64,000 bases of DNA from an uncultured Acidobacteriota bacterium (GTDB taxonomy: Bacteria > Acidobacteriota > Thermoanaerobaculia > Gp7-AA8). Position 1 is the first letter of the stretch. The number at the start of each line of letters is the position of its first letter. Shown piece after piece: positions 10,701-50,870 of the stretch. A program made the translations under genes and the position numbers. Where the stretch lies: the NCBI GenBank assembly GCA_963741955.1, contig CAVUKB010000006.1:128001-192000 (forward strand), written 5' to 3'. The notes below the pieces were generated by a model. That model made no database searches, was not told the DNA's origin, and saw only the letters and a list, made by a program, of their open reading frames with translations.

Positions 10701-10922
10701 ATCGGACGTGAGAAATGATTCCGGGAGCGGGGGCTCGGCTATGAAGTACTGGCGGCTCTCCTCGGCCAGCGCGACGAAGCAACGGGAGACGCCGAGACAA
10801 CGCGCGGCGAGACGGATCAGGCGTCGCAGCGGCTCCTCGGGCTGGCGATCGGCCGTCGACGAGGAACGAAGCTCCTCGCGCTTCGCACGATCTCGGAAAT
10901 GTTCGAATAGTCGGTCGGGCAT
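7743..10922 (-). CDS. Cytoplasmic multi-sensor histidine kinase (GAF-GAF-PAS-GAF-GAF-HisKA-HATPase)
   Basis: PAS (SEERFRQLAENVREVFW..DITERK), FSHDVKNPL H-box, QVLGNLVSNAIKYT, DTGPGI, GAGIGLAIS, GKGSTF; start 10922 has a GGAG RBS. Confidence 0.9.
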   Translation of the reverse strand: MPDRLFEHFRDRAKREELRSSSTADRQPEEPLRRLIRLAARCLGVSRCFVALAEESRQYFIAEPPLPESFLTSDQTPLTRTFCRDIAVSRDIAVSGEPVAIEDIPKHSGPATDPVLRELGAAAYLGVPLVLRSGIVLGVLAAIHDEPRRWSETDIAILRELGAAIVTEIRLRLTVEETAESARWESALAEVMRSVGKAANASEIIETVVSRAVEETRAFGGYAEQTESRGEDGHVEVIAASGSGVPPLGTRVPYPGSLTAEIIESGATHTVTEVGAIGESMARFLNESCRRCTGMIVPFAYQDTVLGALVLLRSSEQEPFREEEASFVRALGDAASVALRRTRFNEEIRESEERFRQLAENVREVFWVVDPKFSRFLYISPEYERIWGRSVESLYANAGSWLDAVHPDDLERPHEAMRAIENGEDASIELRIFRPDGSLRWLRIRGFPVRNERGETYRAVGVIDDITERKNHEGALGLLAEAGRVLTESLDTPAMLSDVARVAARSIGDFCSIDIVGDDGKVVRAAVAHGDPAKQRLADATRDYPPSPNGPLTRSLASGEPLLFPELSSADLEAIASSAEHRRLIDQLGARSMMLLPLIARHQLLGVLTLASAESRRRYDRDDLAIGEELARRAALAVDNARLYGETRRRAAEEAALRQAAEAVSASFTVDDVVRQIARSALEATGADGAFVKRLDLEHGELEVVAVAGERVPAPGERVPFAGSLTEHVIERRKPQILANVSDADPPLTVDLSSICGDCSAVVVPLLDLGEPIGSLVLLRTPERRGFREDELARTFTFGNLAALAFRKVHMLEEAERRREEIEQITASRARLMRGFSHDVKNPLGAADGYAQLLSMGQLDESQKESVAQIRSSLGNALRLIEDLLELGRTEAGQIEIRHLPTDVREAVHRVAEEYRAQADTKGLRMGIEVPEQLPLIDSDPARLRQVLGNLVSNAIKYTKEGGISLRVEIRDAEDAPREKRWIAIDVSDTGPGIPLDQQQLLFHEFMRLDPEVQSGAGIGLAISRRIALALGGDITVRSESGKGSTFTVRVPLVRMGAD

Positions 10923-11104
10923 GTGGTCACTCTCCGGCGTCGCATCACGAGCGCACCGCTGGAATCTTCGTTCCGCGATGGGATCAGACGCTTCAGACTC
11001 CCAGCCCGCGCGAGGAGTCGAAGCGACCCGGTGCCCTCCGCTTCCGTGCACGATCCGCTCCCGCGCGGTACGGCAGCGGCATCAGGAGAGAGCTGGAAAT
11101 GCGT

Positions 11105-21100: not shown

Positions 21101-22607
21101 CAATCGGATGACGGTGCCCCGTCCGCTCGATGTCGGGATCGAACCAGCGGGAGGAGAGCATCGGGTCGAGAGTGAACGAGACGAAGAGGGAAACCGCGAC
21201 CGCGAACGCGACGGTCATCCCGAACTGGAAGAAGAAGCGCCCGACGATTCCCTTCATGAACGCGACCGGAATGAAGACCGCGATGATCGACATCGAGGTC
21301 GCGAGGACGGCGAGCCCGATCTCCGAGGTGCCTTCCCGCGCGGCGGTGTAGTGGTCCTGTCCGTGCTCGAGGTGCCGCACGATGTTCTCCCGCACCACGA
21401 TCGCGTCGTCGATGAGGAGTCCTATGGCGAGAGAGAGTGCCATCAGCGTCATCACGTTGATGGTCATCCCGAGGAAGTACATGGCGATGAACGAAGAGAT
21501 GACGGAGATCGGGAGAGTGAGGCCGGTGATCACCGTCGAGCGCCACGAATTCAGAAAGCAGAAGACGATCAGGATGGTCAGGAGTCCGCCGAGGAGCATG
21601 GTGGTCTCGACGTCATCGACGGACTCGCGGATGAAGATGGACGCATCGCGCACCAGCTCGATGTCGGTGCCCTCGGGGATCTCGCTTTTCAGCTTGGCGA
21701 TCTCGGCCTTCACCGCATCGGAGACGCCGACGGTGTTGGTCTTCGACTGTTTCAGGACGTCGATCACCACGGCGGGGACACCGTTGACGAGGGCGAGGGA
21801 GCGCTGCTCCTCGACCCCATCGACGACTCGGGCGACTTCGCCCAGACTCACCGGATGGTCGCCGCGACGGGCGATGACCATCGATTCGAAGCCGGAGACG
21901 GCCTCGGGCTTCCCTGAGATCCGGATCGGCGTCTCCACCCCACCGCGGTCGAGGCGTCCGAGCGGCGTGTTCACGTTCTCCCCGGCGATGCCGTTCATCA
22001 CGTCATCGACTCCGAGACCCAACGCCTGCAGCTTGACCGGATCGACGAAGACTCCGACCTCTCGCGTGGACGCCCCGACGAGACGCACCTCGCCGACGCC
22101 GGGGATGTTCTCGATCCGGCGCTTGATCTTCCGGTCGGCGAGAGTGGTGAGATCTCGCGGTGAGAGGCGATCGGAGCGGACGGCGAGCGAGATGATCGGC
22201 ATCGCACCGATCTCCATCTTCTGGATCACCGGCTCCTTCATCTGCTCCGGAAGCTGATTGCGGACGCCGTTGATCTTGGCGCGCACTTCCTGCGACGCTT
22301 CGTTGACCTTCACCTCGAGCTCGAACTCGACGATCACGGTCGAGAGACCTTCGCGGGAGGTGGAGTAGATGTGCTTCACGCCGGAGATCGGATTGACCGC
22401 CTCTTCCATCGGACGGGTGACTTCGCGCTCGACAGCTTCCGCGGACGCGCCCGGATACTCGGAGATGATGGTGAGGATCGGCATCTCGACGTCGGGCATC
22501 ATGTCGATGGCGAGACGGCGCCAGGAGAAGATGCCGAGCGTGACCAGCGTCAGCATCAGGACGCTGGCGAAGACGGGACGTTTGATCGAAAGGTTGGAAA
22601 GAAACAT
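18180..22607 (-). CDS. RND (AcrB/HAE1-type) efflux permease fused to a C-terminal TolC-like outer-membrane factor
   Basis: MFLSNLSIKRPV, GLLIDDAIVVREN, GLVTKNAILLVD, RLRPIMMTT, then ~400 aa OEP-like repeats (LSLEDAV..NRD, YELGVAT..D, PIFDG..GRV) in one ORF. Confidence 0.88.
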   Translation of the reverse strand: MFLSNLSIKRPVFASVLMLTLVTLGIFSWRRLAIDMMPDVEMPILTIISEYPGASAEAVEREVTRPMEEAVNPISGVKHIYSTSREGLSTVIVEFELEVKVNEASQEVRAKINGVRNQLPEQMKEPVIQKMEIGAMPIISLAVRSDRLSPRDLTTLADRKIKRRIENIPGVGEVRLVGASTREVGVFVDPVKLQALGLGVDDVMNGIAGENVNTPLGRLDRGGVETPIRISGKPEAVSGFESMVIARRGDHPVSLGEVARVVDGVEEQRSLALVNGVPAVVIDVLKQSKTNTVGVSDAVKAEIAKLKSEIPEGTDIELVRDASIFIRESVDDVETTMLLGGLLTILIVFCFLNSWRSTVITGLTLPISVISSFIAMYFLGMTINVMTLMALSLAIGLLIDDAIVVRENIVRHLEHGQDHYTAAREGTSEIGLAVLATSMSIIAVFIPVAFMKGIVGRFFFQFGMTVAFAVAVSLFVSFTLDPMLSSRWFDPDIERTGHRHPIARLLDRFNHWFDRTADRYKSVVGWALDHRKSVAALAGVAFIGGLGLFAVLESEFFPVYDHGEFMVRFKSAPDASIEETKDRLQKVLGVLKTYPEIDRTYAAIAPTESDTIRNAMVYVHLVDKGDRDRTQQELMPEIREKLHAIPGIIPSVEEDPDNNQKPFILLVRGEEIPKLKEYAAAVKRKLYGVAGLVDLEATLEQELPEYRLVVDRERARTSGIGTDTLVKTIGALVGGQVVSTFEDETGEAIDVRLRLPDSLRQDIRQVGDLRIAKESRDGISLIPISDLVRFERTFSPSEISRQDMSRQVQISANLDRLPLGTAAERALESAGSVPMQAGYSTKMAGDTEIMIESFGYMGEALILAIIFVYLILAAQFESFVDPFAIMLSLPLSIVGMAGMLALTHDTVNIMSLIGLILLMGLVTKNAILLVDFAKVLQKRGMERREAVITAGRTRLRPIMMTTLAMIFGMMPLALGIGQGAEMRAPMARAVIGGLITSTLLTLIVVPVVYTLLDDFAAALHRKWAGSVVHEGEEAAAGAPARPLIGTAKTIGVVLLIALAIFAVARQMSAAEPLSLEDAVAMAKAKNRDVEAAKEYRNWVHGKYVEERAAALPHLTLNASGAKTSDKTYQAIFGDMYPAEQRTYAADASITQVLFAWGKVGAAIRGARQGVMSADDHLEMAQQTAARDVTVAWFDVLLAKRIETIAKETLAQRERHLDAAKKRYELGVATDYDVLSGSVAVDNARPDVIRASNLVKTAMERLRLVLAEPELEAEVTGSLDAPLVEPPPYDRVVAEALRQRPDLKELEHQLAAYHELVKIAGADDKPRLDFRAGYGWTNLAAGAFDTEGKNWNGGVYMVFPIFDGMATRGRVAEAKSNFETARITFEKAKDELTLASRTTVDAVRESLSIVEALTGTEEQARRLLAMAEQGYELGVKTRLEVEDAQLNLSAAEANLATAQRNYRAAVTDLDWVRGAL

Positions 22608-22611
22608 GGCG

Positions 22612-23724
22612 TCAGGCTCCCGTACTCTCGACGACTCGGATCGAGTCGCCATCGCGGAGATCGAACGCACCGCGGGTGATCACGCGGTCGCCGGCGGCGA
22701 GTCCCTTCGCGATCTCGACGAGATCGGAGGAGGTGGCGCCCGTGGTGATGTTGCGCAGTTTCGCGCGTCCCTCGCTGACGACGTAGACGCTTCCACTGCG
22801 TGACTCCGGGTCCCAGGTGAGGAGCGCAGTACGAGGAATGCTGAGGACTCCGGTGCGGTGGCCGGTGACGATCGATCCTTTGGCGAAGAGGCCCGCCTTC
22901 AACGCTCCGTCGGCATTGTCGACGAGGGCCACGACTTTCACCGTGCGGCTCGAGGCATCGGCGGCGGGGTTGATGAAGCTGACGTGCCCTTCGAACGTGC
23001 GGCCGGGGATCGCGTCGCTGGTGAACGAGATCGGCTGGCCGAGTGCGACGCTCGCAATCTTCGACGAGGGCACCGTGACCGTGAGCTCGAGACGGCGGTT
23101 GTCGACGATGGTGAACATCGGCGAAGGCGATCCCATGTTCTCGATGAAGTCCCCGGGATTGACGGTGCGAGCGGCGACCACGCCGTCCATCGGAGCGATG
23201 ACATCGGTCTTCGTGAGACGCGTGCGGGCCATCCGTTCCTGCGCCGCTGCGGCCTCGACGCGGGCGACCGCAGCCTCGGCGGCGGTGCGCGCGTCGTCGA
23301 CGTTCTGACGCGTGGCGAGGCCCGCCGCGAGAAGCTTCTCCATCCGCTCCAGCTCACGCTCTGCGCGGGTCTGCTCGACTTCCGCCTGTTTGCGTCCGGC
23401 GATGGCGCCCGAGAGTGCAGCATCGATCTCCCGACGATCGAAGCGGGCGAGGACCTGGCCTTTCTTCACCCGAACCCATTCGCTGACCAGAACCTCGGCG
23501 ATGGTGCCGCTGTATTCGGCTTTCACTTCACCTTCGAACTTCGGAGTGAGGGAACCGACCACTTCGACAGATTCGGCGACGTCGCCAGGGGCAACGTTTG
23601 CGGCTTCGACGGCGACGGGAGGACGCTCGACGGTTGCGGTCTGATCCGCGCTTCCGCGCGAGCAGCCCGCAGCGACCGTGAGGGCGGCGAGAAGGAAAGG
23701 GATCGATCGGCGGAGAGAGATCAT
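22612..23724 (-). CDS. RND periplasmic adaptor (MFP) lipoprotein
   Basis: Lipobox VAAGC, VKKGQVLARFD, IAPMDGVV, INPAADASSRT, GLAAGDRVI. Confidence 0.92.
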   Translation of the reverse strand: MISLRRSIPFLLAALTVAAGCSRGSADQTATVERPPVAVEAANVAPGDVAESVEVVGSLTPKFEGEVKAEYSGTIAEVLVSEWVRVKKGQVLARFDRREIDAALSGAIAGRKQAEVEQTRAERELERMEKLLAAGLATRQNVDDARTAAEAAVARVEAAAAQERMARTRLTKTDVIAPMDGVVAARTVNPGDFIENMGSPSPMFTIVDNRRLELTVTVPSSKIASVALGQPISFTSDAIPGRTFEGHVSFINPAADASSRTVKVVALVDNADGALKAGLFAKGSIVTGHRTGVLSIPRTALLTWDPESRSGSVYVVSEGRAKLRNITTGATSSDLVEIAKGLAAGDRVITRGAFDLRDGDSIRVVESTGA

Positions 23725-24963: not shown

Positions 24964-25117
24964 CAATGGCCCGAACTTAAGGGGTGTGGCACCATAGGAA
25001 GCGGGAGGGCGGGAGTGATGGGGCGAACCGAATATCGAGCTTCGGAGGTGCGGTTGGAGGTATTCGACGAAGCGTTTCCGGCGAAGAAGGTGGAAGCGAT
25101 CCTCGAGGAGCTGGGGC
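24964..25117 (+). pseudogene. IS4-family left end and transposase N-terminal remnant
   Basis: CAATGG..CTTAAG end-like sequence; EVRLEVFDEAFPAKKVEAILEELGR resembles the IS4 N-terminal domain. Confidence 0.45.
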
Positions 25118-26013
25118 GCTCGAGCCGTACCGAGAGCTCGTCTCGGCCGTCGCTGTCGAATCGACCTACAACTGGTACTGGCTTGTGGATGGCCTCCAGG
25201 ATGCCGGATACCCGGTGAAGCTGGTCAACACCTCGGCGGTGCGGCAATACGAAGGGCTGAAGTTCAGCGACGATCGTCACGACGCGATCCGGCTCGCCCA
25301 TCTCGACCGGTTGGGGATTCTTCCGACCGGTTTCATCATGCCGCGCGAGAGGCGCGGGATTCGAGATCTGGTCCGGAAAAGAATGCGGCTGGTTCAGATG
25401 CGGACTGCCTGCATCACGAGCAATCAGGGGATTCAGAGTCGAGTGCTGGGTGCTCGCATGAACGTTCGCGAGATCAAGAAGATGGATCGCGACTCCATCT
25501 CCGAGAATATTTCGGATCCCTTCGTCGCGATGTCGCTCGGGAGCACCCAGGCGATCATCATCGCACTCTCGCGCGAGATTGACCAGATCGAACGTGCGGT
25601 GCTCGGCCAGATCCGACGAACTCCGGAGTGGAAGCGACTCACCTCGATCTGGGGCATCGGCGAGGTCCTGGCCAGTATCATTCAGCTCGAGACCGGACCG
25701 ATCGAGCGGTTCCTCGGAGCGGGAGAATACGCTTCGTACTGCCGCTGCGTCCCAACGCGCTACACCAGCAACGACAGGAAAAAGGGCGAAGGGAACGCCA
25801 AGAACGGGAACCGCTATCTCGCCTGGGCCTTCATCGAAGCCGCGGCGCGCCCTGCGAGGCTATCCGCTCGCCCGCCGCTGGTACGCGAAGAAAACCCGCA
25901 AGGCCAGCCCGATCCTCGCGCGAAAAGCTCTCGCACACAAGATCAGCCGGAGCGCCTTCTACGTGATGAGGGACGGGGTGCCGTTCCGTCCCGAGCTGCT
26001 GTTCGGATCATGA
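25115..26013 (+). pseudogene. IS110-family transposase, 5'-truncated and frameshifted at ~25850
   Basis: AVESTYNWYWLVDGL, KFSDDRHDA, IWGIGEVLA, YASYCRCV, KNGNRYLAWAFIEAA; C-terminus KALAHKISR in another frame; first catalytic GIDLH motif missing. Confidence 0.85.
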
Positions 26014-26380
26014 GCTTGGCCGGGACGAGAAACCACGAATGGGGTTGGGTGAAAGTCCCCCGGGCCTGATTGGACTCGTCCCGGCCGGGATCTTCCCTTC
26101 CGGTCCGCGACGTCGGCGTGAGCCATTCCAGGGTTGGACCCGCGGCAACTTGCCGCGGTGAGCCACAGGTTCTGTCACTCGAATTTCTTGGACACGCCCG
26201 CGCACCGATCGCGTTTCTGGGGTCTCGAACGAGACCAGGGACGGCCCTCACCGGCTGTCTTGATCCTGATGGGTGACTGATGCGGACCCGATCCGACATC
26301 GAACGCACGAAACGCCAGGGATCGCGTGAACGGAAAGGACGATCAACACATCACCGGCAACGCCGAGTCTTGGGACACCA

Positions 26381-31335: not shown

Positions 31336-32486
31336 GTGTAGTGTTACAGAAATAACTAGACTTATGACGCGGAATGCGCGACAATAAGTCATGCGCGTCG
31401 CACCGAAAATTGAGTTGGATGCTGAAGCCACTGCTGCACTGGAACGCCTGGCGCGGGGCCGACGGACCGAGGTCCGGGTTGTGCTGCGCGCAAGGATCAT
31501 ACTGCTCGCTGCAAAAGGGCTGGAGAATGCTGTAATCGCCGCCCGGGTCAAGACCTCTCGAGCGACGGTGGGACTCTGGCGTGAGCGGTATGCCCGAGGG
31601 GGCATCCCCGCGATCCTTAAGGATGCGACGCGTCCGGGACGGCCGAGACAGAATCGGGCGAGGATCGAACTCGAGGTGATCCGGTTGACCACGCAGACAG
31701 TCCCGGAAAACGCCACGCACTGGACGACCCGAACGTTGGCGGCAAGGCTGGGAGTTGATCATGTTTTCGTACACAGGGTCTGGCGTGCGCACGGGCTTCA
31801 ACCTCACCGGGTCAGAACATTCAAGCTCAGCAACGATCCGAAATTTGTGGAGAAGCTCACGGATGTGGTGGGACTCTATCTCAACCCTCCCGACCACGCG
31901 ATCGTCCTCTGCGCTGACGAGAAGTCGCAGATTCAGGCGCTCGACCGCACGCAACCGGGTCTTCCGATCAAGCGTGGACGATGCGGGACGATGACTCACG
32001 ACTACAAACGGAATGGCACGACGACTTTGTTCGCCGCCTTGGATACCCTCGAAGGTCGGGTCATCGCCGAATGCATGCCACGTCATCGCCACCAGGAATG
32101 GATCCGGTTTCTCAAGAAGATCGACGCTGAGGTCCCGGCGGAACTCGACGTTCACTTGATCGCAGACAACTACGCGACTCACAAGCACCCGAAGGTCCGG
32201 CGATGGTTGGACCGGAATCCTCGCTTTCACATGCACTTCACTCCGACGAGCAGTTCCTGGCTCAATCTGGTCGAGCGATTCTTCCGAGATTTGACGGACA
32301 AGAGAATTCGCCGAGGCGCCTTCCATTCCGTAGATCAGCTGGTTGCAGCGATTCTCAGCTATATCGATGCGCATAACGAAGCCCCTTGGCCCTTCGTTTG
32401 GTGCGCTCGCTCGGAGGAGATCATCGAGAAGGTTGGGCGAGCCCGTTTCGCCATGCAAAAGTCAATAACTGAATGAAACACTACAC
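31336..32486 (+). mobile_element. IS630-family insertion sequence
   Basis: TIR GTGTAGTGTT(A/T)CA, TA on both flanks (31334-35, 32487-88), CTAG target. Confidence 0.92.
31391..32476 (+). CDS. IS630 transposase
   Basis: ADEKSQIQAL, YKRNGTT, DNYATHK, SSWLNLVERFF (DDE). Confidence 0.95.
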   Translation: MRVAPKIELDAEATAALERLARGRRTEVRVVLRARIILLAAKGLENAVIAARVKTSRATVGLWRERYARGGIPAILKDATRPGRPRQNRARIELEVIRLTTQTVPENATHWTTRTLAARLGVDHVFVHRVWRAHGLQPHRVRTFKLSNDPKFVEKLTDVVGLYLNPPDHAIVLCADEKSQIQALDRTQPGLPIKRGRCGTMTHDYKRNGTTTLFAALDTLEGRVIAECMPRHRHQEWIRFLKKIDAEVPAELDVHLIADNYATHKHPKVRRWLDRNPRFHMHFTPTSSSWLNLVERFFRDLTDKRIRRGAFHSVDQLVAAILSYIDAHNEAPWPFVWCARSEEIIEKVGRARFAMQKSITE

Positions 32487-33564: not shown

Positions 33565-35000
33565 CTATACGCTCGTGAGGCGGTTGAGGGCGTCGAAGAC
33601 GTAGATCGTATTCGCGGAGGCGTGTCGCTCGTCACGAACGGTGAGGAGATTTCCGCGCGTGTCGTACGTGTAGGCGATGCTGCTCGCGTCCGGATGCGTC
33701 ACGGTCACGAGACGTCCCTCGGCGTCGTAGCCGAACGTATCGCTTCGTTTCGACACCCAGCTGCCGCAGCTCGCTGCGGGGGTGGAGCATTCCTCGTACG
33801 ATTCATGAGTCTTCCGCCCGATCGTGTTGAGGGTGTAGACGACGCGCTCGTGCTGGTTGCCGCTCGCGTCGAGACGCGTCACGCCGAGGAGCCGGTTCGT
33901 GCCGTCTTCCCATGAGCTCACGGTGGCGTTGCCGAGGGGGAGAGTGGTTTGCGTGAGCCGGTCGCGACCATCGTACGAGAAGCCCGTGACGTAGTCGGCC
34001 CGTTCGGCCGCATCTCCGGCGGACTGAACCGAGCGGATCTCGGTGACGCGGCCGCGAGCGTCGAGTGTGCGACGGGTCTCGACTCCGTTCGGATCGAGCG
34101 TGGATCGCGCGGTGCCGTAGACGTCGTAGTCGTCGAACGAGGTAGTGAGCGATGACGAGGCGCCGGTCGTCACGACGGTCTGGAGAAGGCGTCCCCGGCG
34201 GTCGAGGTTCGCGTCGGCGTCGGAGGCGTGGCTCCACGGATTTTCGTGACGAACCGCGGCCAGGAGGCGAGGGCGTACTCGTACGTGGAACACCGGCGAG
34301 ACCGTCCTCACCGAGACCATCTCAGGGTATCTTGCCTCCACGGATTCCTCTCCCACCACACGCACCACGACCACGAGCTTCGACTCGCGCTGGATCATCC
34401 GGTGTTGATCAGGCGTACGGTGAATGTGGCGCTCGAGCCATCGCACGCCGCGGCTGTTTCAGGCATCCAGAGGCCTCGTTCGAAGAGTGCCGGTTGAGTA
34501 CTCGTGAACACTGGCGAGCCGTTCTTTCTCAGTGATAGCGCGATGTTGTATGAGTCGTCCCGCATCGGCCAGACGGACCACCCGCAGGTTGTCCCGAAGC
34601 CGTCATCCCAGAATTGACAATAATTGCAGGGAAACGTGTAGCTCGCGAAGAATCGAATCCGCAGAGTCCCATCGGCGGCGGGAACGAACTGATAGGTCGG
34701 TGCCGATTCCAGGGTCGGATCCGAATCGCACCACATGTTGAAGTTCGAACAAAGGCCGCTCGAGTCGGGGTTGCACGTCGGATTGGCCCGCTTCATCTGG
34801 AACGCCGCGCGCTTTTCATACGCGGAGCACATGTAGCAGCTAGCGTTGCCGGGGGGTGGTTCGACCGTAGCCGAATCACAGGGATAGATCTGGTACGGAG
34901 GAATTGGCCACACCGCAAGGAGCGGTGTCGCATTGATCGCCAGAAACAACAGAGGAGCCCAGCGTGCAATGAGGCGAAGCGAACGGATTCTCGACATCAC
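33565..35000 (-). pseudogene. Decayed RHS/YD-repeat protein (secreted Cys-rich N-terminus 34395-35000; YD core 33565-~34230)
   Basis: YDVYG, LDARGR, YDGRDR, YDAEGR, YDTRGN, FDALNR repeats; stops and frame breaks between parts; no PxxxxDPxG or toxin tip. Confidence 0.75.
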
Positions 35001-35328: not shown

Positions 35329-36384
35329 ATGAAACAGCTTCTCTGGATACTCCCGATCCTGATGGTCACGCCGCTGTTCGCCCAGAAGCGTCCGGTGCAC
35401 ACCTTCTCCATCGTCGCGCGCGACGCGACGAGCGGCGAGATGGGCGTCGCGGTGCAGTCGCACTGGTTCGCGGTGGGACAGATCGTCCCGTGGGCGGAAG
35501 CCGGAGTCGGCGCGATCGCGACGCAGAGCTTCGTCGATCCTTCGTATGGAAAGCTCGGGCTGGAGATGATGCGCACCGGAAAAAGCGCGCCCGACGCTCT
35601 CCGCGGCCTCCTCCAGTCGGACCGGTCGTGCCAGGTCCGTCAGGTGGCGATGATCGACACCGCGGGAAACGTTGCGACGTTCACCGGCTCGAAGAACATT
35701 CAGGCCGCTGGAGGGATTGCGGGAGGAGAGAAGACGGAGAGCGTTCACTTCGACTGCGGCACCGGAGGAGGGACGATTTCCGTCGGGAAGGACTTTTCGG
35801 TTCAGGCGAACCTCATGTCGAACGACCGGATCTGGCCGGCGATGGAAAAGGCGTTCCGCGAGACGAAGGGCGACCTTGCCGACCGGATGCTCGCCGCGCT
35901 CGATGCCGCACAGGCGGTCGGAGGCGACATCCGCGGGAAGCAGTCGGCCGCACTGATCGTGGTGAAGGCGCAGTCGTCCGGAAAGCCGTGGGAGGATCAG
36001 ATTTTCAACCTCCGGGTCGACGATGCTCCCGAGCCGCTTCCCGAACTGCGGCGGCTGGTCGCGCTGCAGCGTGCCTACAATCACATGAACGCCGGCGATC
36101 TCGCGACGGAGCACGGCGACAACGCGGGCGCTCTCCGCGAGTACTCGACTGCGGAACAGATCGCGGCGACGACGCCCGGGATCCCGCAGAGCCGTTACGC
36201 GGAGATGATCTACTGGCACGCGGCGGCGCTGGTGAACATGAACCGCGTCGACGAAGCGATGCCGCTCTTCGCGAAGGCGTTCGCGATGGAGCCCGGCTGG
36301 CGGACGCTGACCCCGCGTCTTCCGGCGGCGGGACTCCTTCCGGACGACCCGGCACTGATCCGCAGGATCGTCGGCGCGAAGTGA
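35329..36384 (+). CDS. DUF1028 (Ntn-hydrolase-like) secreted protein with C-terminal TPR
   Basis: Signal peptide, HTFSIVARD..GVAVQS, GAIATQS, GGDIRGKQSAAL, LRVDD. Confidence 0.88.
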   Translation: MKQLLWILPILMVTPLFAQKRPVHTFSIVARDATSGEMGVAVQSHWFAVGQIVPWAEAGVGAIATQSFVDPSYGKLGLEMMRTGKSAPDALRGLLQSDRSCQVRQVAMIDTAGNVATFTGSKNIQAAGGIAGGEKTESVHFDCGTGGGTISVGKDFSVQANLMSNDRIWPAMEKAFRETKGDLADRMLAALDAAQAVGGDIRGKQSAALIVVKAQSSGKPWEDQIFNLRVDDAPEPLPELRRLVALQRAYNHMNAGDLATEHGDNAGALREYSTAEQIAATTPGIPQSRYAEMIYWHAAALVNMNRVDEAMPLFAKAFAMEPGWRTLTPRLPAAGLLPDDPALIRRIVGAK

Positions 36385-36530: not shown

Positions 36531-36539
36531 TGATACAAT
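36531..36539 (+). promoter_or_regulatory. Candidate extended -10 promoter for the sigma/CHAT operon
   Basis: TG-A-TACAAT 36 bp upstream of the sigma start. Confidence 0.45.
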
Positions 36540-36575: not shown

Positions 36576-37424
36576 ATGACTCCCGAAGAGCTGTTTCTGA
36601 AGAACCTTCCCCGCATCGAGCGCCTGGCGCGCTCGATCTGCGTGCGTCACCGTGCCTCCCCTGACGAGACGGAAGAGTTCCTCTCGAATCTGCGCCTGAA
36701 GCTGATCGACGACGATTACCGCGCTCTCCGCTCGTTCGAAGGGAAGAGCTCTCTGGAGACCTTTCTCTTCGTCACCATCCAGCGGGCTTTCTACGACTAT
36801 CGAGATCAGCAGTGGGGACGGTGGCGCCCCTCGACCGAAGCGACCAGGATGGGTGAAGCGGCTGTGACTCTGGAGAGGTTGATCTGGAGGGACGGATGGT
36901 CCTTTCCCGAAGCGCGCGACCATCTGATCCAGAGGGATCCTTCCCTCACCCCGGAGGAGGTCGAGACGATCCATGCCGGCCTTCCGGCCCGGTGGCGGCG
37001 GCCTCGCGCAGAGCCCGATCCCGAGCCGGCACTGGAGAAGGCCGTCGGGGCGGAGGGGGCCGACGCGCCGCTGATCGAACGGGAGAGACGTGAGCGTGCG
37101 GCGAGGCTCAGCACCACGGTGAGCGCCGCGCTCCAGTCACTGGACGAGGAGGATCAGCTGATCCTCCGGATGCGTTTCGCGAGCGGCCTCAAGATCGTCA
37201 CCATTGCGACGGTCCTCGGGCTCGATCAACGCCGTCTCTACCGGAGAGTGGAATCACTGATCGCGACTTTGCGGAGAGCCCTGGAGGGGGGCGGACATTC
37301 GGCGGAAGAGGTCCGGGAAATTCTGGAACATGGATGTGATGGATTCGAAGTCGACTTTCGGCCGGCGGAGGAAATTTCCCCGCTGCATCCGTCCAACGAC
37401 CGAAGGGGACTGGATCGTGACTGA
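36576..37424 (+). CDS. Sigma-70 family (ECF-like) RNA polymerase sigma factor
   Basis: Region 2-like (IERLARSI..FEGKSSLETFL..FYDYR) and region 4 (LQSLDEEDQLILRMRF..IATVLG). Confidence 0.85.
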   Translation: MTPEELFLKNLPRIERLARSICVRHRASPDETEEFLSNLRLKLIDDDYRALRSFEGKSSLETFLFVTIQRAFYDYRDQQWGRWRPSTEATRMGEAAVTLERLIWRDGWSFPEARDHLIQRDPSLTPEEVETIHAGLPARWRRPRAEPDPEPALEKAVGAEGADAPLIERERRERAARLSTTVSAALQSLDEEDQLILRMRFASGLKIVTIATVLGLDQRRLYRRVESLIATLRRALEGGGHSAEEVREILEHGCDGFEVDFRPAEEISPLHPSNDRRGLDRD

Positions 37425-37445
37425 GCGGGCGGAAGGAGTCAGGCG

Positions 37446-40400
37446 ATGACCTCAGGAAGTCATCCGCCAGCCGGAACGCTGGCCGCATTTGCGGAAGGGC
37501 GCCTCGACGGGCAAGAGCGACGCGACGTAGTCGAGCATCTCGCCGGGTGCCGCGGGTGCTACGAGCTGTTCGAGGCGACCGCGCGCTTCGTCGAAGAGAG
37601 AGATGCGACGGGCGGCGAAACCGGGACAGTGGTCCAGTTGAGGAAGGAGTCCGGCGTATCCCTCCGCTGGGTCGCCGCGATCGCGGCGATGCTCCTCCTG
37701 ATCGCCGCGGCGGCGCTGGTACTCCGTACACGAGTCGCCTCGCCGTTCGACACGCTGGTCGCGTCGGCGAATGATCTCCCCAACCGAGTCACCACAGGAC
37801 GTCTGGATGCGGATTTCGCGTACCGGCCACCTCCAGTGGTGACCCGCGGGGCGACCGACGAGCAGAGCCGGAATCCTAAGTGGCTGAAGCTGGAAGGATC
37901 CGCGGGAGATGTACTGGAAGAGAATTCGGCGTCCGCACGCGAGCGGGCGGTCGCGATGCTGCTGACGGGCGACCCGCAGCGGGCGATCGATCTTCTGGAG
38001 AGTGAAGTTCGGAAGCATCCTGACGATGCGTCGGCGTGGAACGATCTTTCCGCAGCGAGGCTGGCGGCAGGCGAGAAGCTGCGAGACCCGTCACTGGCGG
38101 TGAAGGCGCTCGCCGCGGCGGACCAGGCCCTGAGGATCGAGCCGAACATGGCGCCGGCAGTGTTCAACCGTGCGCTCGCTCTGGAGGAGATGGGCCTGCT
38201 CGTACAGGCTCGCGAAGCGTGGCAGCACTTTCTCGAGCTCGATTCGTCGTCGGGGTGGGCTGCGGAGGCGGAGGCACACGTCCGGAAGCTGTCGTTCCAG
38301 AGCGAATCGAAGCGATGGAAGGAATCGATTCCAGAGCTCGAGTCGGCTGCGGTGGGAGGGAATTCGAAGCAGGTGAGCCGAATCGTCGCCGAATTCCCCG
38401 AGGAAGCGCGCCGGTGGGGAGAGGCGGTGTACCTCGGCGCGTGGGCTGATGCCCGGCAGAAGGGAGATGCGACGGGCGCCGCGAGGCAACTGACCATCGC
38501 GCGCGAGCTCGGAGAGGCCCTGCACGAAGTGAATGGGGAATCGATGCTGCGCGATGCGGTGGCGGCGATCGACTCGAGTCGCGGCGACGCGCTCGACGCT
38601 CTCACCCGCGGCGAGTTCCTCTATCGGGAGGGGCGGATTCTCCACAGCCGTAATCAGGCGACTGCCGCCGAGAAAATGCTGCGCGATTCGGAGAGTCTCC
38701 TCCGCCGTGGCGGCAGCCCCATGGCCCTCGTCGCGCGCTACTACGTCGGCAGCACCCTGTACGCTCAGACGAGGATCAGAGAGTGCGCGGACCTTCTCGA
38801 CCAGCTGGCGGCGGAGCCGCTCGAGTCGAAAGGGTACGACGCGCTTGCGGCCCAGATCGCATGGGAGAGAGGGCTTTCACATTGGGTGATGGGAGAAGCG
38901 GACGACGCGCTGGAGATCCTGACCGCCGGACGCGATCTCGCCAGCCGTCAATCGGAAAACGATCTGCGTGCATCGTTCGACGTATTCCTCGCGGACTACC
39001 ACGAGCATCTCGCCGAGCCGGCGCTGGCGTGGACCTACCGGCGCGAAGCACTGGAGTCGCTCGCGCGGCAGGGCAACGTGTTCCGGTCGAACGTCTGCCT
39101 CGACGCTCTGAGCAGGACGCTCGCCGAGCGCGACGACTGGGCCGGAGTGACGTCGGTGGCATCTCTTCTGGTGGAGCAGGGCGACGCGGAGAATCCGCTT
39201 CCGAACCACCATGCGCTCCTGTGGCGCGCGATGGCCTATCTGGAGAGGGGCGATGCGGCGTCCGCACGCGCGGACCTTGCACAGCTCGACCGGTGGATTG
39301 CGATGGAAAAGGACCAGGCGATTCACGAAGGACTGGTCTCGGATCGGGAGAGGCTCGAAGCGCTGATCGACGGCGAGAGCGATCCGTTGCGAGGAGCGGA
39401 GGAGATCAGCCGTACCATCGATTACGCGTCATCGCGGGATCTCGACGTCGCGGTACCTCAGCTTCTGCTCGAGCGAGGGCTGCTGGAGCGGAAGGGAGGA
39501 GCGTTCGAGAAGGCGCAGAGCGATCTCGACCAGGGTCTCCGGCTGGCGGAGGAGGAACGAGGAAAGGTCTCGGATCTCACGAACCGCGCCTCGCTCGACA
39601 CTACATGGGACGGACTCTTCGACGCGGCGATCGATCTCGCCGTCGAACGGAGAGAGGATGATCGAGCGTTTTCCCTGGCGGAGCGCCGCCTTTCCCGCGA
39701 CTTCATCGACGCATCGAAAGGAGATGCGATCGCCGCGACACCGGCGTCGCTCCACGATCTGGAGACCGCGTTGTCGGCGGACGCGGCATTGCTCGAGCTC
39801 TCGTCACTTCCGGACAGCGTCGCAGTGACTCTCGTCCGTCGCGGGTCATCGATCACCTGGCGACGGCCGGTCGGGCGGCAGGATCTCTCGTCGCGAGCCG
39901 GCGCGTTGCTGAGCGAGGAGCCGAACCGTTCCCGCGAGGCGGCAGAATCACTTTTCTCCGAGCTGATCGCCCCGGCGACGCAAAGTCTCGCCGGGGTCAG
40001 GTCTCTCGCGATCGTCGCGGATGCGCATTTCCGGAAGATTCCCTTCGCTGCCCTGATCGATCCGGCCGATGGGAAGCTGCTCGTCGAGAAGTTCCAGCTG
40101 ATCGAACCCCCGTGTGCCAGCATTGCCCTCGAGGCATCTCAGAAAATCAAGCGCAAAGTGCGCCACGACGGGATCGCCCTGCTGGTCGATCCGCAGTCGA
40201 GAGATCCGCGGTACGCCGCGCTTTCCGGGGCGGAGGCAGAGGTGGACCGGCTCGCAGCGCTCTATCCGAATGCGGTGACGCTGCGCGGCGACGACGCGAC
40301 GCGAGAACGGGTGCTGGCGATGCTCCCCACTGCTGCCCTGGTCCATTTCGCAGGACACGGAGAGGCCGATCCGGCTCACCCGCGGAGGTCGAGCCTTCTT

Positions 40401-40781
40401 CTCTCCGGTCCGCACGGCGCCGCGACGCGCCTCGAGGCTGCGGAGATCGCATCGCTGAGGCTCCCCGCCACCGCTCTGGTGGTCCTCGGCGCGTGCGATT
40501 CCGGGAAGAGTCTCGGGCGGAACGGGATCGACAGCGTCGGCGCGGCGTTCCTCGCCGCCGGTGCGACTCGGGTTGTGGCCTCACGCTGGAAGATCGAAGA
40601 CGCTGGCGCGGCGGAGCTCCTCTCGCGTTTTCACCGGCGGCTGACCCGCGGGGAGACGCCCATCGCCGCTCTCCGCGGCGTGCAGATCGACGCGGCACGG
40701 GCGAGCGACGGAAGCTTGCGACCTCTTCGCGAGTGGGCGGCGCTCTACCTGATGGGCGGTTCCGAAGAACTGCTAAACTGA
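37446..40781 (+). CDS. zf-HC2 anti-sigma domain - TM - TPR - CHAT (caspase-like) protein
   Basis: HLAGCRGC zinc motif; TM WVAAIAAMLLLIAAAALVL; TPRs (AWNDLSAA, AVFNRALALE); CHAT His HFAGHG and Cys LGACDSG; VVASRWKIED; WAAL. Confidence 0.92.
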   Translation: MTSGSHPPAGTLAAFAEGRLDGQERRDVVEHLAGCRGCYELFEATARFVEERDATGGETGTVVQLRKESGVSLRWVAAIAAMLLLIAAAALVLRTRVASPFDTLVASANDLPNRVTTGRLDADFAYRPPPVVTRGATDEQSRNPKWLKLEGSAGDVLEENSASARERAVAMLLTGDPQRAIDLLESEVRKHPDDASAWNDLSAARLAAGEKLRDPSLAVKALAAADQALRIEPNMAPAVFNRALALEEMGLLVQAREAWQHFLELDSSSGWAAEAEAHVRKLSFQSESKRWKESIPELESAAVGGNSKQVSRIVAEFPEEARRWGEAVYLGAWADARQKGDATGAARQLTIARELGEALHEVNGESMLRDAVAAIDSSRGDALDALTRGEFLYREGRILHSRNQATAAEKMLRDSESLLRRGGSPMALVARYYVGSTLYAQTRIRECADLLDQLAAEPLESKGYDALAAQIAWERGLSHWVMGEADDALEILTAGRDLASRQSENDLRASFDVFLADYHEHLAEPALAWTYRREALESLARQGNVFRSNVCLDALSRTLAERDDWAGVTSVASLLVEQGDAENPLPNHHALLWRAMAYLERGDAASARADLAQLDRWIAMEKDQAIHEGLVSDRERLEALIDGESDPLRGAEEISRTIDYASSRDLDVAVPQLLLERGLLERKGGAFEKAQSDLDQGLRLAEEERGKVSDLTNRASLDTTWDGLFDAAIDLAVERREDDRAFSLAERRLSRDFIDASKGDAIAATPASLHDLETALSADAALLELSSLPDSVAVTLVRRGSSITWRRPVGRQDLSSRAGALLSEEPNRSREAAESLFSELIAPATQSLAGVRSLAIVADAHFRKIPFAALIDPADGKLLVEKFQLIEPPCASIALEASQKIKRKVRHDGIALLVDPQSRDPRYAALSGAEAEVDRLAALYPNAVTLRGDDATRERVLAMLPTAALVHFAGHGEADPAHPRRSSLLLSGPHGAATRLEAAEIASLRLPATALVVLGACDSGKSLGRNGIDSVGAAFLAAGATRVVASRWKIEDAGAAELLSRFHRRLTRGETPIAALRGVQIDAARASDGSLRPLREWAALYLMGGSEELLN

Positions 40782-40843
40782 CCCCACGCAGATACCGCAG
40801 GAAAAGGGTCCGCGAATTCCTTGATCCCGAAGGAGGAGGAGCC

Positions 40844-41599
40844 ATGCAGTTTCGCATTCGGTTTTTCGGAATGGTCTGTCACGTTCTCGACGGCGAACCG
40901 GTCCGGGCAGTGTTCCTGAAAGAACCGTCCGGGGAAGATCCGAACCACAAGGCACGCATGATCATCGACGAAGATCTCGTCGATCCGCAAAGCGTGCAGC
41001 AGATCTTCCCGGGCACCACGCCGACTGGAGGAAAGTACACTCTTCCACTGACCCATCGCGGACTCGCTTTCGCTGGTGCCACGACAACGAAGCCGCAGGC
41101 GGCGGGATCGTTCAGTGATCTCGTTCCGAGCCTCGTCCAGATCACCGAAACGATGATGAGCGAGATCAATGCGGGAGTGTACGCGTCCGACACGACGGCG
41201 TGGGACGTGATACAGGCGTGGTTCGATTATCCCGGCGGATCATTGACTGCAACGCCCTATCCGCAGCAGGGAAAGGTGGTGTGGGACCACCACCCGGGGC
41301 GGCCGTCCTACCTTCGCCCGGTCGGGAAAGAGGTCTATCTCCAGTGCGAGAACGACGAGGCCGTTCTCCTGGTCACCGACGGGTCGACCGATCCGGCGAA
41401 GAGGCTGATTCTGACGCCCCGGGGGCAGCGTCTCGACTTCAGCCTGGAGAACGGATCGACGTACGGCAGCGGTCACTGGAAGCTGAACTACTCGTTGAGC
41501 GTGAAGCCTGTTCCGGACGACCCCGATCTCCTCCCCGAGAGCGACGGTCCGACGCTGCAGAGTGACGTTCCGGGTTGCTCGAATTCGCAGTTCCCCTGA
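40844..41599 (+). CDS. 251-aa hypothetical protein ending PGCSNSQFP, CHAT-associated
   Basis: ATG 40844 with strong AGGAGGAGG RBS, 62 bp after the CHAT stop; the ORF-track start at 40112 is spurious. Confidence 0.8.
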   Translation: MQFRIRFFGMVCHVLDGEPVRAVFLKEPSGEDPNHKARMIIDEDLVDPQSVQQIFPGTTPTGGKYTLPLTHRGLAFAGATTTKPQAAGSFSDLVPSLVQITETMMSEINAGVYASDTTAWDVIQAWFDYPGGSLTATPYPQQGKVVWDHHPGRPSYLRPVGKEVYLQCENDEAVLLVTDGSTDPAKRLILTPRGQRLDFSLENGSTYGSGHWKLNYSLSVKPVPDDPDLLPESDGPTLQSDVPGCSNSQFP

Positions 41600-42363
41600 G
41601 GGGGAATGGAAATTTCCGGCGTTCGTCCGTCCAACCGACGGGAGCAGTCATCGAGACGCTCCCGTCGGAGGCCGAGATGTCGCGCAAGCTCGAATCTTTT
41701 CATCGGATTACGTCGACGAGTGCCCATCACATGGTGCTCCGGCGGCGGCTGGTCGCACTCTGGAGATCCCGACGCCTCGCTGCCGGAGCCATCGATCATC
41801 TCGCGTTCGGCGTGGTGATTCTCGACGGCGGCCGGCGCGTGCTCTCGATGAACAGGGCCGCGAGCGCGATCGTGGATCGCCGCGATGGGCTCTCGCTCAG
41901 CGAAGGGTCGATTCACCCGACCGACCGGCGCACCCGTTGCGCGTTCGACGAGTTCGTCAGAGAGGCGCTCGCACCGCGCTCCAGGCCATCCGGTGACGAC
42001 GCCGTGCTGACCATCGATCGCGCTTCGGGCTCACGCCCCTACACCGTGGTGGTTTGCCCGTTGAACGATCAGGCCTCGTTTCACGGCTCGTTCCGAGCCG
42101 CGGTCGCACTTTTCATCATGGATCCCGATGCGCCGGTGGAGCTCAGGCCGCAACGTCTGCGAGCGCTCTATTCGCTCACCCCCCGTGAGACGGAGCTCGC
42201 CAGCCGCCTCCTCGGAGGTTCGACGCTGGACGACATCGCACACCAGCTGGGAGTCACCATGAACACCGTCCGCTGCCAGCTCAAGAGAATCTTTCAGAAG
42301 ACCGGCACCAGTCGCCAGTCGGAGCTGGTGATTCTGCTCGGCTCACTGCGCATGGTCGCGTGA
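41575..42363 (+). CDS. PAS-like plus LuxR HTH transcriptional regulator
   Basis: GVVILDGGRRVLSMNRAA; YSLTPRETELA..IAHQLGVTMNTVRCQLKRIFQKTGTSRQSELV; start uncertain (ATG 41678 possible). Confidence 0.85.
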   Translation: MLEFAVPLRGNGNFRRSSVQPTGAVIETLPSEAEMSRKLESFHRITSTSAHHMVLRRRLVALWRSRRLAAGAIDHLAFGVVILDGGRRVLSMNRAASAIVDRRDGLSLSEGSIHPTDRRTRCAFDEFVREALAPRSRPSGDDAVLTIDRASGSRPYTVVVCPLNDQASFHGSFRAAVALFIMDPDAPVELRPQRLRALYSLTPRETELASRLLGGSTLDDIAHQLGVTMNTVRCQLKRIFQKTGTSRQSELVILLGSLRMVA

Positions 42364-49275: not shown

Positions 49276-50870
49276 AGGAGTCTGCGCGATAGGACGTAAG
49301 TTCGGCGCTTCCTGATGATCTCGGGTGACGTCCGCTCGCGAGCGGCAGAACCGGGCCATCGAAGCGCCTTGGGGTTGATGGAGCCGTTCTCGGGGAGGTG
49401 GCAGCGCGAAACACTTGCTCGGCGGGACTTTTCGGGGTTGGATACTGCTCTGCCGGGGCTATTCGACCGCAACCAGAGCGCTCATTCGCTTCAGATTGAT
49501 CACCAGGCACACCAGAGCCCATTCGCCGGCAACTTTGCGCGTCCCGCGGAGACTGAATCGTCGAAAGCCGAGAACGTTTTTGACCCAGCCAAACACCGGC
49601 TCAACGATCGCCTTTCGCCGGCGATAGACCGCCTTGCCTGCAGGTGAGTCCAACTTCTGCTTCATCCGCAGAGTAGCGGGGAGCGTCGTCTCAGCTGCGG
49701 TTTCTTTGCCTTCTCGTCCGAGAGAAACATACGCATCGATCTTCTTCTCCTCCAACTCGATGAACGAGCTTTCCGACTTGTAACCGGTGTCGGCAACAAC
49801 CTGGTCGGGGCTTGTTTCGCAATTCTGTTCGACCACCTCGACCAAAGGCACGAGTGATCCGCTGTCCGCCGCAGATTGTGTGATCTCGAATCCGACGATG
49901 AGTTGGTTATCGGCATCGACTGCGATCTGCGCGTTGTAGCACTGCTGAAATCCTTCCTGGGACTTCATGATTCGGCTCTCGGAATCGGTGAAGTTCTCTT
50001 GCGCTTTGTCCTCAGGTACGCCGAACTTCCGTTTGAATGGCTTACCCTTCTTCCTGGCCGGATCATCGTCGCCTTCGGAGCGACCAGCCTTCGTGTCCAG
50101 TTCCCGCTGTCGCTGTTCGAGTCGCTCTCGTGCATCTCTGATCTTTCGGATGCGTGTTTCCCGGCGCTGGAGCTCTTCGGGCAACTCATCCCCGCGTCGA
50201 TCAACCCCGTACTCGGCATCCTCCCGGGCATCCTCTTCCGCCGCTGTGGCCAAAATCTCCGCGATCTCCTTCTCGAGCTTCGCTTCTTCCTTCTTCATCC
50301 GATCGTAGCTCATCGCCTTGTGCTTGCTGGCATTCGCTCGCACCTTCGACCCGTCGATTGCGATCCTCCCGAGCGTAACTAACCCTGCCTCCTGAGCGGT
50401 CCGAATGATCTGGACCAGCAATGAGCTGAATGCGTCCACGTTTTCAAGCCGAAAGTCGCAGATGGTCCGATGCGATGGAAAGTTCCCGGCTGCAAGATAC
50501 CGGACGGCGATATCTTCATCGATCCGCCGGGCAATCTTGCGCGAGGAGAACGTTCCCGTCAGGTACGAATAGGTGATCAACTTGAGCATCATCCTCGGCT
50601 CGTAGGGCTGCTTCCGCCTGCCGTCGCCCTTGTACCGCTCGTAGAATGCACTCAGATCAAGCTGATCGATCATGTCGGAAACGAAGTGCGCCAAGTGACC
50701 CTCAGGGAGCCACTCGTATGGCGAGGGCGGAAGCAGCAGCGACTGCTCCGGTCGGTATGGCCTATACGTGGTCGGCATGACCTAATCTTAACATATTATC
50801 GTTACTACTAACCATTCACCTTTTATCATGCCGATTTGCCGCGAACCGGGTTTCTACCGCGCAGACTCCT
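49276..50870 (-). mobile_element. IS1182-family insertion sequence
   Basis: TIRs AGGAGTCTGCGCG(A/G)TAG; lower GC; encloses the transposase. Confidence 0.9.
49459..50778 (-). CDS. IS1182 transposase
   Basis: LLPPS..WLPEGHLA, YEPRMMLK, SSRKIA, IDGSKVRANASKHK, TDSESRIM, ADTGY, YRRRKAIVEPVFG. Confidence 0.95.
   Translation of the reverse strand: MPTTYRPYRPEQSLLLPPSPYEWLPEGHLAHFVSDMIDQLDLSAFYERYKGDGRRKQPYEPRMMLKLITYSYLTGTFSSRKIARRIDEDIAVRYLAAGNFPSHRTICDFRLENVDAFSSLLVQIIRTAQEAGLVTLGRIAIDGSKVRANASKHKAMSYDRMKKEEAKLEKEIAEILATAAEEDAREDAEYGVDRRGDELPEELQRRETRIRKIRDARERLEQRQRELDTKAGRSEGDDDPARKKGKPFKRKFGVPEDKAQENFTDSESRIMKSQEGFQQCYNAQIAVDADNQLIVGFEITQSAADSGSLVPLVEVVEQNCETSPDQVVADTGYKSESSFIELEEKKIDAYVSLGREGKETAAETTLPATLRMKQKLDSPAGKAVYRRRKAIVEPVFGWVKNVLGFRRFSLRGTRKVAGEWALVCLVINLKRMSALVAVE

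Follow-up and report, generated by a model that had tools for sequence, protein, structure and literature searches.

A DdvA-like anti-sigma TPR-CHAT operon with a conserved third gene in an uncultured Acidobacteriota bacterium

DdvS and DdvA of Myxococcus xanthus have been described as a sigma factor of the extracytoplasmic function (ECF) type and a transmembrane anti-sigma factor that carries tetratricopeptide repeats (TPR) and a CHAT protease domain (PMC6061681, PMC11506125). DdvA is a single-pass protein. Its cytoplasmic zinc domain traps DdvS, and its periplasmic scaffold-TPR-CHAT part of roughly 900 residues has been solved by electron cryomicroscopy (PDB entries 8ROT and 8RW5; PMC11506125). 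That part is dimeric and arrow-shaped, and its CHAT domain is without the three-helix motif. Here, we describe a three-gene operon that resembles this pair, located at positions 36576-41599 of a 64,000-nucleotide stretch of DNA (the window) from an uncultured Acidobacteriota bacterium of the class Thermoanaerobaculia (contig CAVUKB010000006.1, positions 128,001 to 192,000). The first two genes encode a sigma factor and an anti-sigma factor which together appear to form a member of the recently described DdvA class. The third encodes a companion protein that appears to belong to an undescribed family.

The transmembrane helix of DdvA spans residues W71-L92, the catalytic dyad of its CHAT domain is H862/C907 and its linker faces the active site of the opposite protomer (PMC11506125). 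The authors propose that CHAT, once activated by a signal, cuts the linker of the neighbouring protomer, that RseP cuts the membrane helix and that the sigma factor is then released (PMC11506125). Sequestration of the sigma factor by the N-terminal domain of DdvA has been shown, as has the RseP-dependent loss of DdvA after removal of the TPR-CHAT part (PMC6061681, PMC11506125). DdvA-like anti-sigma factors have been reported from several Myxococcota and one Comamonas (main text of PMC11506125, as distinct from its table S7). DdvA is so far the sole characterised anti-sigma factor with a TPR-CHAT sensor, and the type has been thought to be nearly confined to myxobacteria.

The anti-sigma factor and the adjacent sigma factor

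The operon consists of three co-oriented open reading frames (ORFs), 36576-37424, 37446-40781 and 40844-41599, all on the + strand and separated by gaps of 21 and 62 bp. The possibility that these are chance ORFs is ruled out by the E-values and by the synteny described below.

The second gene (37446-40781, + strand) encodes a protein of 1111 residues which, from its Pfam domains and its homology to PDB entries, is a DdvA-like transmembrane anti-sigma factor with a predicted extracytoplasmic TPR-CHAT part. When the protein was compared with the PDB as a single sequence, the best natural match was 8rot_B (E = 3.5e-17), which aligns in two colinear blocks (residues 6-292 with 3-291 and residues 945-1082 with 836-973). 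This chain is a 991-residue 'CHAT domain-containing protein', the length and residue numbers of which fit DdvA as described in PMC11506125. A profile of 35 relatives also gave 8rot_B as the top match (E = 3.9e-43). His971 and Cys1017 are in register with H862 and C907 of DdvA, the transmembrane segment aligns with the transmembrane region of DdvA and residues 154-292 align with the DdvA scaffold. For the central TPR part HMMER gave no sequence-level alignment to DdvA.

The cytoplasmic zinc-type anti-sigma domain (37446-37625, + strand) is recognised by Pfam as zf-HC2 at residues 12-38, with 23.8 bits against a cut-off of 22.2. The motif HLAGCRGC (residues 31-38) can be read in the translation, as can HFAGHG and GACDSG of the CHAT domain. 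Conservation was assessed by aligning 35 of the relatives in which the zinc motif occurs; their overall identity is roughly 30%. All 35 have the zinc-motif residues H31, C35 and C38 (37536-37559, + strand). At position 6 there are 20 relatives with Cys, 11 with His, two with Phe and two with a gap; since Cys or His predominates here, His6 of the window protein is the likely fourth zinc ligand. The sole hydrophobic window in the protein corresponds to a single transmembrane helix at residues ~75-93 (37668-37724, + strand).

Beyond the membrane lies a conserved juxtamembrane segment, residues 100-150 (37743-37895, + strand), with L104 and R114 invariant among the 35 relatives and R119, F124 and R134 close to invariant. 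Aligned with DdvA, this segment falls on the linker around V129-P140. By this correspondence residues ~100-150 would be the likeliest region for self-cleavage, with Arg134 as a candidate site. We note that three CHAT relatives without an anti-sigma domain, which have a lipoprotein-type or plain signal anchor instead (locus L017, 1099-4458; locus L019, 1429-4680; locus L022, 1495-4803), retain the motif R-x-hydrophobic-E-x-R-L-x-G-x-F after the anchor.

The helical scaffold and TPR region follows at residues ~150-830 (37893-39935, + strand), with Pfam TPR models at residues 165-276 and near 590-614. The CHAT caspase-like domain occupies residues 831-1104 (39936-40757, + strand; PF12770, E = 2.9e-50). 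Its catalytic dyad, His971 (40356-40358, + strand) and Cys1017 (40494-40496, + strand), is well conserved, each residue being present in 34 of the 35 relatives.

The sigma gene (36576-37424, + strand), which ends 21 bp before the anti-sigma gene, encodes a sigma-70-family factor of 282 residues. Pfam places Sigma70_r2 at residues 10-80 and region 4 at residues 182-224, and the protein passes the broad superfamily model TIGR02937 of NCBIfam with 72 bits against a cut-off of 42.9. Its AlphaFold2 model, built from 33 sequences and with a mean confidence score (pLDDT) of 86, comprises five parts: sigma2 (residues ~3-80), an extra four-helix domain that is predicted confidently (87-135), a disordered linker (136-163), sigma4 (164-238) and a C-terminal tail with a short helix. 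ECF (group 4) sigma factors consist of sigma2 and sigma4 only, with a short linker, and are about 170-200 residues in length; the window protein departs from this definition in both its length and its extra middle domain. In a Foldseek search with the model, three-domain sigma factors lead (Staphylococcus aureus SigB, models of Bacillus subtilis SigD and SigB, and sigma28) and ECF sigma factors are just behind, with low overall template-modelling (TM) scores, since the domains can move relative to one another. As a single sequence the sigma factor had no match below E = 0.01 in the PDB, and looser thresholds gave a mixture of AlgU/SigH-type and FliA sigma factors. Given the additional folded domain in the model, and given that three-domain sigma factors are the best matches to its fold, we regard the protein as a sigma-70-family factor with a predicted sigma3-like middle domain and not as a canonical ECF factor.

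In total, 137 homologues of the sigma factor were found, in records from Thermoanaerobaculia, Longimicrobiaceae and Gemmatimonadetes. The 119 that were listed are 229-384 residues in length, and some homologues carry a FliA label from one source. Among 30 loci drawn from a phylum-wide sample, 13 have a sigma gene of the window type next to the CHAT homologue.

The first-pass annotation of this DNA had listed three co-oriented genes with 21 and 62 bp gaps, an HxxxCxxC motif, one transmembrane helix, TPR and a CHAT domain with intact His and Cys. All of these features are present at the coordinates given above, with E-values for CHAT and sigma that are far beyond chance, and the observation is thus confirmed. 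Its reading of the first two products as a sigma factor and a zinc anti-sigma factor with a CHAT domain outside the cytoplasm is supported by the domains, the sole transmembrane helix and the alignment with DdvA. The system had also been called uncharacterised. This description suits the companion but not the sigma and anti-sigma-TPR-CHAT core, for which DdvS/DdvA is a published precedent (PMC6061681, PMC11506125). Nor is the topology unusual, as had been supposed, since a periplasmic CHAT domain is already on record for DdvA (PMC11506125). With the self-cleavage and release model and the extracytoplasmic CHAT domain both published for DdvA, neither the design nor the topology of the window protein is unprecedented.

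A word-indexed search with the 1111-residue protein gave 216 relatives at E < 1e-5, and all of those that bear names are from Thermoanaerobaculia or Acidobacteriota, in keeping with the phylum that the first-pass annotation had assumed. Among 120 listed relatives, 87 have H-x3-C-x2-C within the first 80 residues, and 86 of these 87 also have a hydrophobic helix within the first 200. The protein matches 74 of 401 genomes in the phylum sample at E = 1e-20 or better, where two candidates were scored per genome and many matches are to the CHAT part alone. In the family to which the window belongs, 78 of 121 genomes contain a match at E = 1e-40 or better. Many genomes of this family have at least six CHAT matches, and in two genera every genome is positive (19 of 19 and 32 of 32). 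These counts, and the class-wide count for the companion given below, take in three genomes (G152, G537 and G783) that are flagged as unpublished. Judged by these matches, the DdvA-type family is large and often multi-copy in Thermoanaerobaculia and extends beyond the published range of Myxococcota and Comamonas. The hundreds of relatives in soil Acidobacteriota provide a much larger comparative set for the DdvA class.

The window's own genome has a single copy of the DdvA-like gene together with one unrelated secreted TPR-CHAT protein. A duplicate of the three-gene set was considered and rejected: one companion was found, and the second CHAT gene is of the different, secreted type. The latter, which is on another contig (locus L003, G000:C10:30000-46000; 6192-9329), encodes a TPR-CHAT protein of 1045 residues with a signal peptide (CHAT, E = 6e-65). 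It is accompanied by an ECF-like sigma gene at 9369-10034 (TIGR02937, E = 4e-8, below the cut-off) and by a gene at 10041-10946 for a 301-residue protein with one hydrophobic segment. This set has the appearance of the same theme in split form, recalling the ECF54-type contexts (PMC8999054). In related genomes several CHAT paralogues contain one in-frame stop codon within the match, either TAA, TGA or TAG (G419:C1:1858057-1861305, G397:C52:4030-7269 and others); these may be pseudogenes among the multiplied copies, or the count may have taken in the normal stop at the end of the gene.

The companion protein

The third gene (40844-41599, + strand) encodes a companion protein of 251 residues, the ATG start of which lies inside a longer GTG ORF. 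A strong Shine-Dalgarno sequence, GGAGGAGG, can be read at 40832-40839 (+ strand) and ends 4 bases before the ATG at 40844. The protein has no match in Pfam, NCBIfam or PADLOC, its best E-value against PDB sequences is 0.78 and among 28 members of its family no Pfam family is common to more than one. A word-indexed search returned only the companion itself, while an exhaustive HMMER search of 1.84 billion representatives gave 15 relatives (best E = 7.5e-20). The AlphaFold2 model has a pLDDT of 87.7 and a predicted TM score (pTM) of 0.88 and is β-rich with a floppy tail. Foldseek gave a best E-value of 0.039 at a TM score of about 0.1, and the ESM Atlas contained no usable match. No mention of the protein was found in the literature, supplements being outside the search, and the string CSNSQWP was likewise unmatched; the searches on this theme turned up the DdvA work, papers on CRISPR proteases and an ECF review.

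An alignment of the 15 relatives with the copies found at the loci surveyed has a mean column identity of only 21%. Against this divergence, the first strand keeps the pattern I-x-F-x-G-x-I-x-H, His35, Gly132 and Cys245 hardly vary and the last residue is always Pro. The extreme C-terminus, C-S-N-S-Q-F-P in the window protein (41576-41596, + strand), follows the family motif C-x-[N/D]-x-x-[W/F/Y]-P-COOH. This motif ends 15 of the 15 library relatives and 30 of 45 distinct ORFs from the loci, or 23 of 38 if the seven ORFs that were found by means of the motif itself are left aside. Locus L083, from the flagged genome G537, is counted in these tallies as well as among the companion loci and the leader calls below.

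Companion genes also occur in tandem. Locus L049 has three matches to the tail motif at 6355-7923, two of which are ORFs that match the family profile, locus L096 has four copies in 2.1 kb (2-2108) and locus L108 has two (6144-9251); most of the copies end in the tail motif. A scan of viral contigs for the motif gave one match, which is not a companion gene.

The companion gene is repeatedly found beside CHAT genes. The first companion profile matched five of 401 genomes of the phylum, and in all four besides the window's own the companion directly follows a sigma and CHAT pair. The five loci have nothing in common but the three genes, their flanks not being conserved. A strict scan for the tail motif in all species genomes gave 17 places. 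Nine of these have no ORF ending in the motif, and about nine matches would be expected by chance on a rough estimate. The eight real places are all in Thermoanaerobaculia or Acidobacteriota records; six have the end of a CHAT gene directly upstream and one holds three tandem companion copies. A wider profile matched 65 of 401 genomes of the class, with 56 of 96 in the window's family compared with eight of 304 elsewhere, and up to five matches were listed per genome. A reading of the two tables places all 56 companion-positive genomes of the family within its 77 CHAT-positive ones.

The same association is seen at the level of loci. A CHAT homologue lies within 1.5 kb in 20 of 29 companion loci, two others being cut by a contig end and seven having none, and a companion-family ORF adjoins 12 of 30 CHAT-homologue loci. 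On metagenome contigs, 23 of 35 matches to the tail motif are companion genes, and 11 of the 23 have a CHAT gene within the DNA examined. At locus L017 the companion follows a lipoprotein-anchored CHAT gene which has no anti-sigma domain and no sigma gene nearby. Because the companion also occurs in this setting, the gene arrangement ties it to TPR-CHAT and not to the sigma factor. The earlier proposal of a dedicated partner is therefore well supported by the linkage of companion and CHAT across genomes and loci, the three genes being syntenic in other genomes while the flanks differ.

The gene order is not always the same. The companion lies upstream of the CHAT gene in loci L082 (1-2559), L095 (1-1948), L107 (5283-9239) and L084 (1-3731). 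In the last of these it has an N-terminal fragment of anti-sigma type on one side and a CHAT fragment on the other, perhaps because of a rearrangement or a break in the assembly.

Proposed mechanism and alternative readings

In our view, the locus is probably a transmembrane signalling operon of the DdvS/DdvA type to which one component has been added. For the binding and cleavage steps, the signal and the regulon we infer the following scheme. At rest, the cytoplasmic zinc domain (His31, Cys35, Cys38 and perhaps His6) would hold the sigma factor at the membrane, while the TPR-CHAT module outside the cytoplasm would sense a signal, probably a protein. The activated His971/Cys1017 dyad would then cut the juxtamembrane segment (residues ~100-150, with Arg134 as a candidate), removing the TPR-CHAT module. 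An RseP-type site-2 protease would next cut the membrane helix, the remaining stub would be degraded and the sigma factor would be freed; a gene for an RseP-type Peptidase_M50 is present elsewhere in the window's genome (E = 3e-66). The co-transcribed companion would belong with the TPR-CHAT module, its free C-terminal tail being recognised by TPR or CHAT as a ligand or substrate.

TPR domains typically bind conserved free C-termini of otherwise fast-evolving proteins, and clan CD peptidases select their site mainly by the P1 residue, which is Asp for caspases and Asn for legumain. Recognition of the tail by TPR-CHAT is ranked first among the possible roles because a free conserved C-terminus suits TPR and a fixed Asn/Asp suits a caspase-like P1 preference, yet we hold this with low confidence and consider a co-transcribed output about as likely. 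A complex prediction for TPR-CHAT residues 363-1111 with the companion, in which scaffold residues 150-362 were left out, scored 0.00 and is not evidence either way.

Several observations weigh against the scheme as a whole. The sigma factor has no detectable likeness to DdvS in PDB searches, although it is uncertain whether the DdvS sequence is in the set searched, and at 282 residues it is unlike a typical two-domain ECF factor. No regulon or autoregulated promoter was identified. Self-cleavage of DdvA is itself a proposal of its authors (PMC11506125). The juxtamembrane motif persists in relatives that are anchored as lipoproteins and lack an anti-sigma domain, and therefore cannot exist only for release of a sigma factor. 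Furthermore, the window companion has no signal peptide, and no hydrophobic stretch lies upstream in frame, while the TPR-CHAT module sits outside the cytoplasm. A crude hydrophobicity test, in which a few calls are doubtful, divides the 45 companion ORFs into 26 that are leaderless, 18 with a Sec-type or lipoprotein-type leader and one that could not be placed; two operons contain a leaderless copy followed by a copy with a leader. A meeting of companion and TPR-CHAT is therefore easy to envisage for some members but is unexplained for the window's own.

This last point favours the strongest of the alternatives, in which the companion is a mere output. It would be the first gene, or the only one, that the freed sigma factor transcribes, or else an effector co-transcribed with the other two genes, and it would make no contact with the receptor. 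The window companion and about half of its family lack an export signal and would stay in the cytoplasm, apart from TPR-CHAT. The gene is also co-oriented with the other two and has its own strong ribosome-binding site, and no terminator-like site was found on the + strand between the three genes, which makes a single transcript for all three likely. Tandem arrays of two to four companion copies would likewise suit an output. However, the companion of locus L017 follows a CHAT gene with neither an anti-sigma domain nor a sigma gene nearby, and a conserved free tail on so divergent a protein looks like a recognition element. We regard a mere output as possible but doubtful.

A second alternative, drawn by analogy with Myxococcus, is that the operon senses phage and switches defence genes; in that organism, DdvS drives an island containing a cyclic oligonucleotide-based antiphage signalling system (CBASS) and CRISPR. 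The homology to DdvA is in keeping with such a role, and the many diverged paralogues per genome in relatives (at least six in many) would suit a repertoire of sensors. The neighbourhood, however, gives no support to the defence function that had been suggested for this locus. A Pfam scan of 20 flanking ORFs between 18 and 54 kb found no defence genes, and PADLOC, applied to the three products and five neighbouring ORFs, gave just a weak BovA-type match on the CHAT core and a weak CARF-type match on a LuxR-type neighbour. No CBASS or CRISPR genes were seen among the flanking ORFs scanned, although no search was aimed at CRISPR arrays or cas genes. The flanks are not conserved between loci, and just a subset of DdvA-like pairs is near defence systems in the available account of that class (PMC11506125). 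On balance we consider a defence switch unlikely here.

The companion might instead be a substrate of CHAT, its tail being cut or transferred after the conserved Asn/Asp four residues from the C-terminus so as to gate release of the sigma factor. The constant distance of this residue from the C-terminus, in all 15 library relatives and in 30 of the 45 locus ORFs, would agree with the P1 preference of clan CD peptidases noted above, and the tight linkage of companion to CHAT genes would also be expected. The compartments nevertheless do not match for the leaderless companions, the window's included, and this makes such processing rather improbable. Equally improbable, in our judgement, is that CHAT cuts nothing here and serves as a sensor or steric plug while another site-1 protease starts the cascade, for although the dyad of resting DdvA is misaligned and its authors expect no effect of dyad mutation if CHAT is inactive in unperturbed cells (PMC11506125), 34 of 35 relatives retain the dyad even though their overall identity is roughly 30%.

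Returning to the DdvS/DdvA-type operon with one added component, a bolder form of it can be envisaged. The system could be a three-part receptor in which TPR-CHAT reads or cuts the invariant C-terminal tag of a hypervariable companion and so decides whether the sigma factor is released, Thermoanaerobaculia having multiplied the receptor and companion pair into repertoires. Leaderless companions might then be cytoplasmic markers whose appearance outside the cytoplasm reports a breach of the membrane. We put forward this form as speculation that is unlikely to hold.

Genomic surroundings and comparison with known systems

An extended -10-like element, TGATACAAT, is found at 36531-36539, 37 nt before the start codon of the sigma gene. 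By eye and without statistics, TAnnnT elements like it seemed to be present upstream of sigma genes in related loci. An inspection of the same kind for a promoter shared by 16 sigma genes revealed only housekeeping-like -10 elements.

Upstream of the operon are a DUF1028 gene (35329-36384), an RHS-repeat fragment (33565-34446, - strand) and two transposase genes, one of the IS110 family (24984-26069, + strand) and one of DDE_3 type (31391-32476, + strand). Downstream are genes for a PAS-LuxR regulator, a sigma54-type response regulator and a histidine kinase and, further out, NrfD and Fe-S proteins and another transposase (DDE_Tnp_1; 49459-50778, - strand). The transposases and the RHS-repeat fragment around the operon suggest a rearranged or mobile neighbourhood. 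The PAS-LuxR regulator ORF (41575-42363, + strand) is co-oriented with the operon and overlaps the last 25 bases of the companion gene if translation begins at a TTG; the other loci with all three genes do not conserve this ORF. At 18180-22670 (- strand) the window contains a 1496-residue frame with a complete AcrB-type RND pump (residues 25-1033) and a domain of the outer-membrane efflux protein (OEP) type (1310-1489), adjoined by HlyD-type and TetR genes. This frame may be a fused pump and channel gene or two genes read as one ORF.

Among known systems, the type III-E Craspase (Cas7-11/gRAMP with the TPR-CHAT protein Csx29), which acts on putative anti-sigma factors, likewise couples a TPR-CHAT protease to sigma/anti-sigma control. 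Unlike the window system it is cytoplasmic, RNA-guided and monomeric, and its protease and anti-sigma factor are separate proteins. A CRISPR-linked Craspase was rejected as an identity for the window protein: the Csx29 model NF041237, for which the cut-off is 300 bits, gives a score of 24.5 and matches the catalytic core alone (residues 964-1061). With canonical regulated intramembrane proteolysis of the RseA/DegS/RseP type, following the logic set out in the available text of PMC11506125, the window system shares a single-pass anti-sigma factor with a bulky outer domain that blocks the site-2 protease. The difference is that the site-1 protease would be part of the window anti-sigma factor itself. 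In ECF54-type contexts a CHAT protein is likewise genetically linked to a sigma factor, the neighbours being CHAT, subtilase or carboxypeptidase genes; there CHAT is separate and secreted and no anti-sigma factor is assumed (PMC8999054), whereas CHAT of the window is fused to an anti-sigma domain.

The closest likeness is to DdvS/DdvA. The window protein has in common with DdvA an N-terminal zinc anti-sigma domain, one equivalently placed transmembrane helix and, beyond it, a long juxtamembrane linker, a helical scaffold, TPR and a CHAT domain with a His/Cys dyad outside the cytoplasm, and in both systems a sigma gene lies directly upstream. The window anti-sigma factor is 120 residues longer than DdvA. 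Its neighbourhood differs in showing neither CBASS nor CRISPR genes among the flanking ORFs scanned. Should the companion turn out to play no part, the operon would count as an ordinary representative of a class of regulators described recently. The companion, which is not mentioned in the available text of the Myxococcus work, is a candidate for the missing ligand or substrate of the DdvA class, and with Arg134, Cys1017 and the companion tail the operon supplies residues at which this can be tested. As it stands, the operon differs from the described members of the class in its lineage, being from the Thermoanaerobaculia within the Acidobacteriota, where the family is abundant and multi-copy by our counts; in its type of sigma factor, which has an extra folded domain in the model and no detectable likeness to DdvS; and above all in its conserved and undescribed third component.

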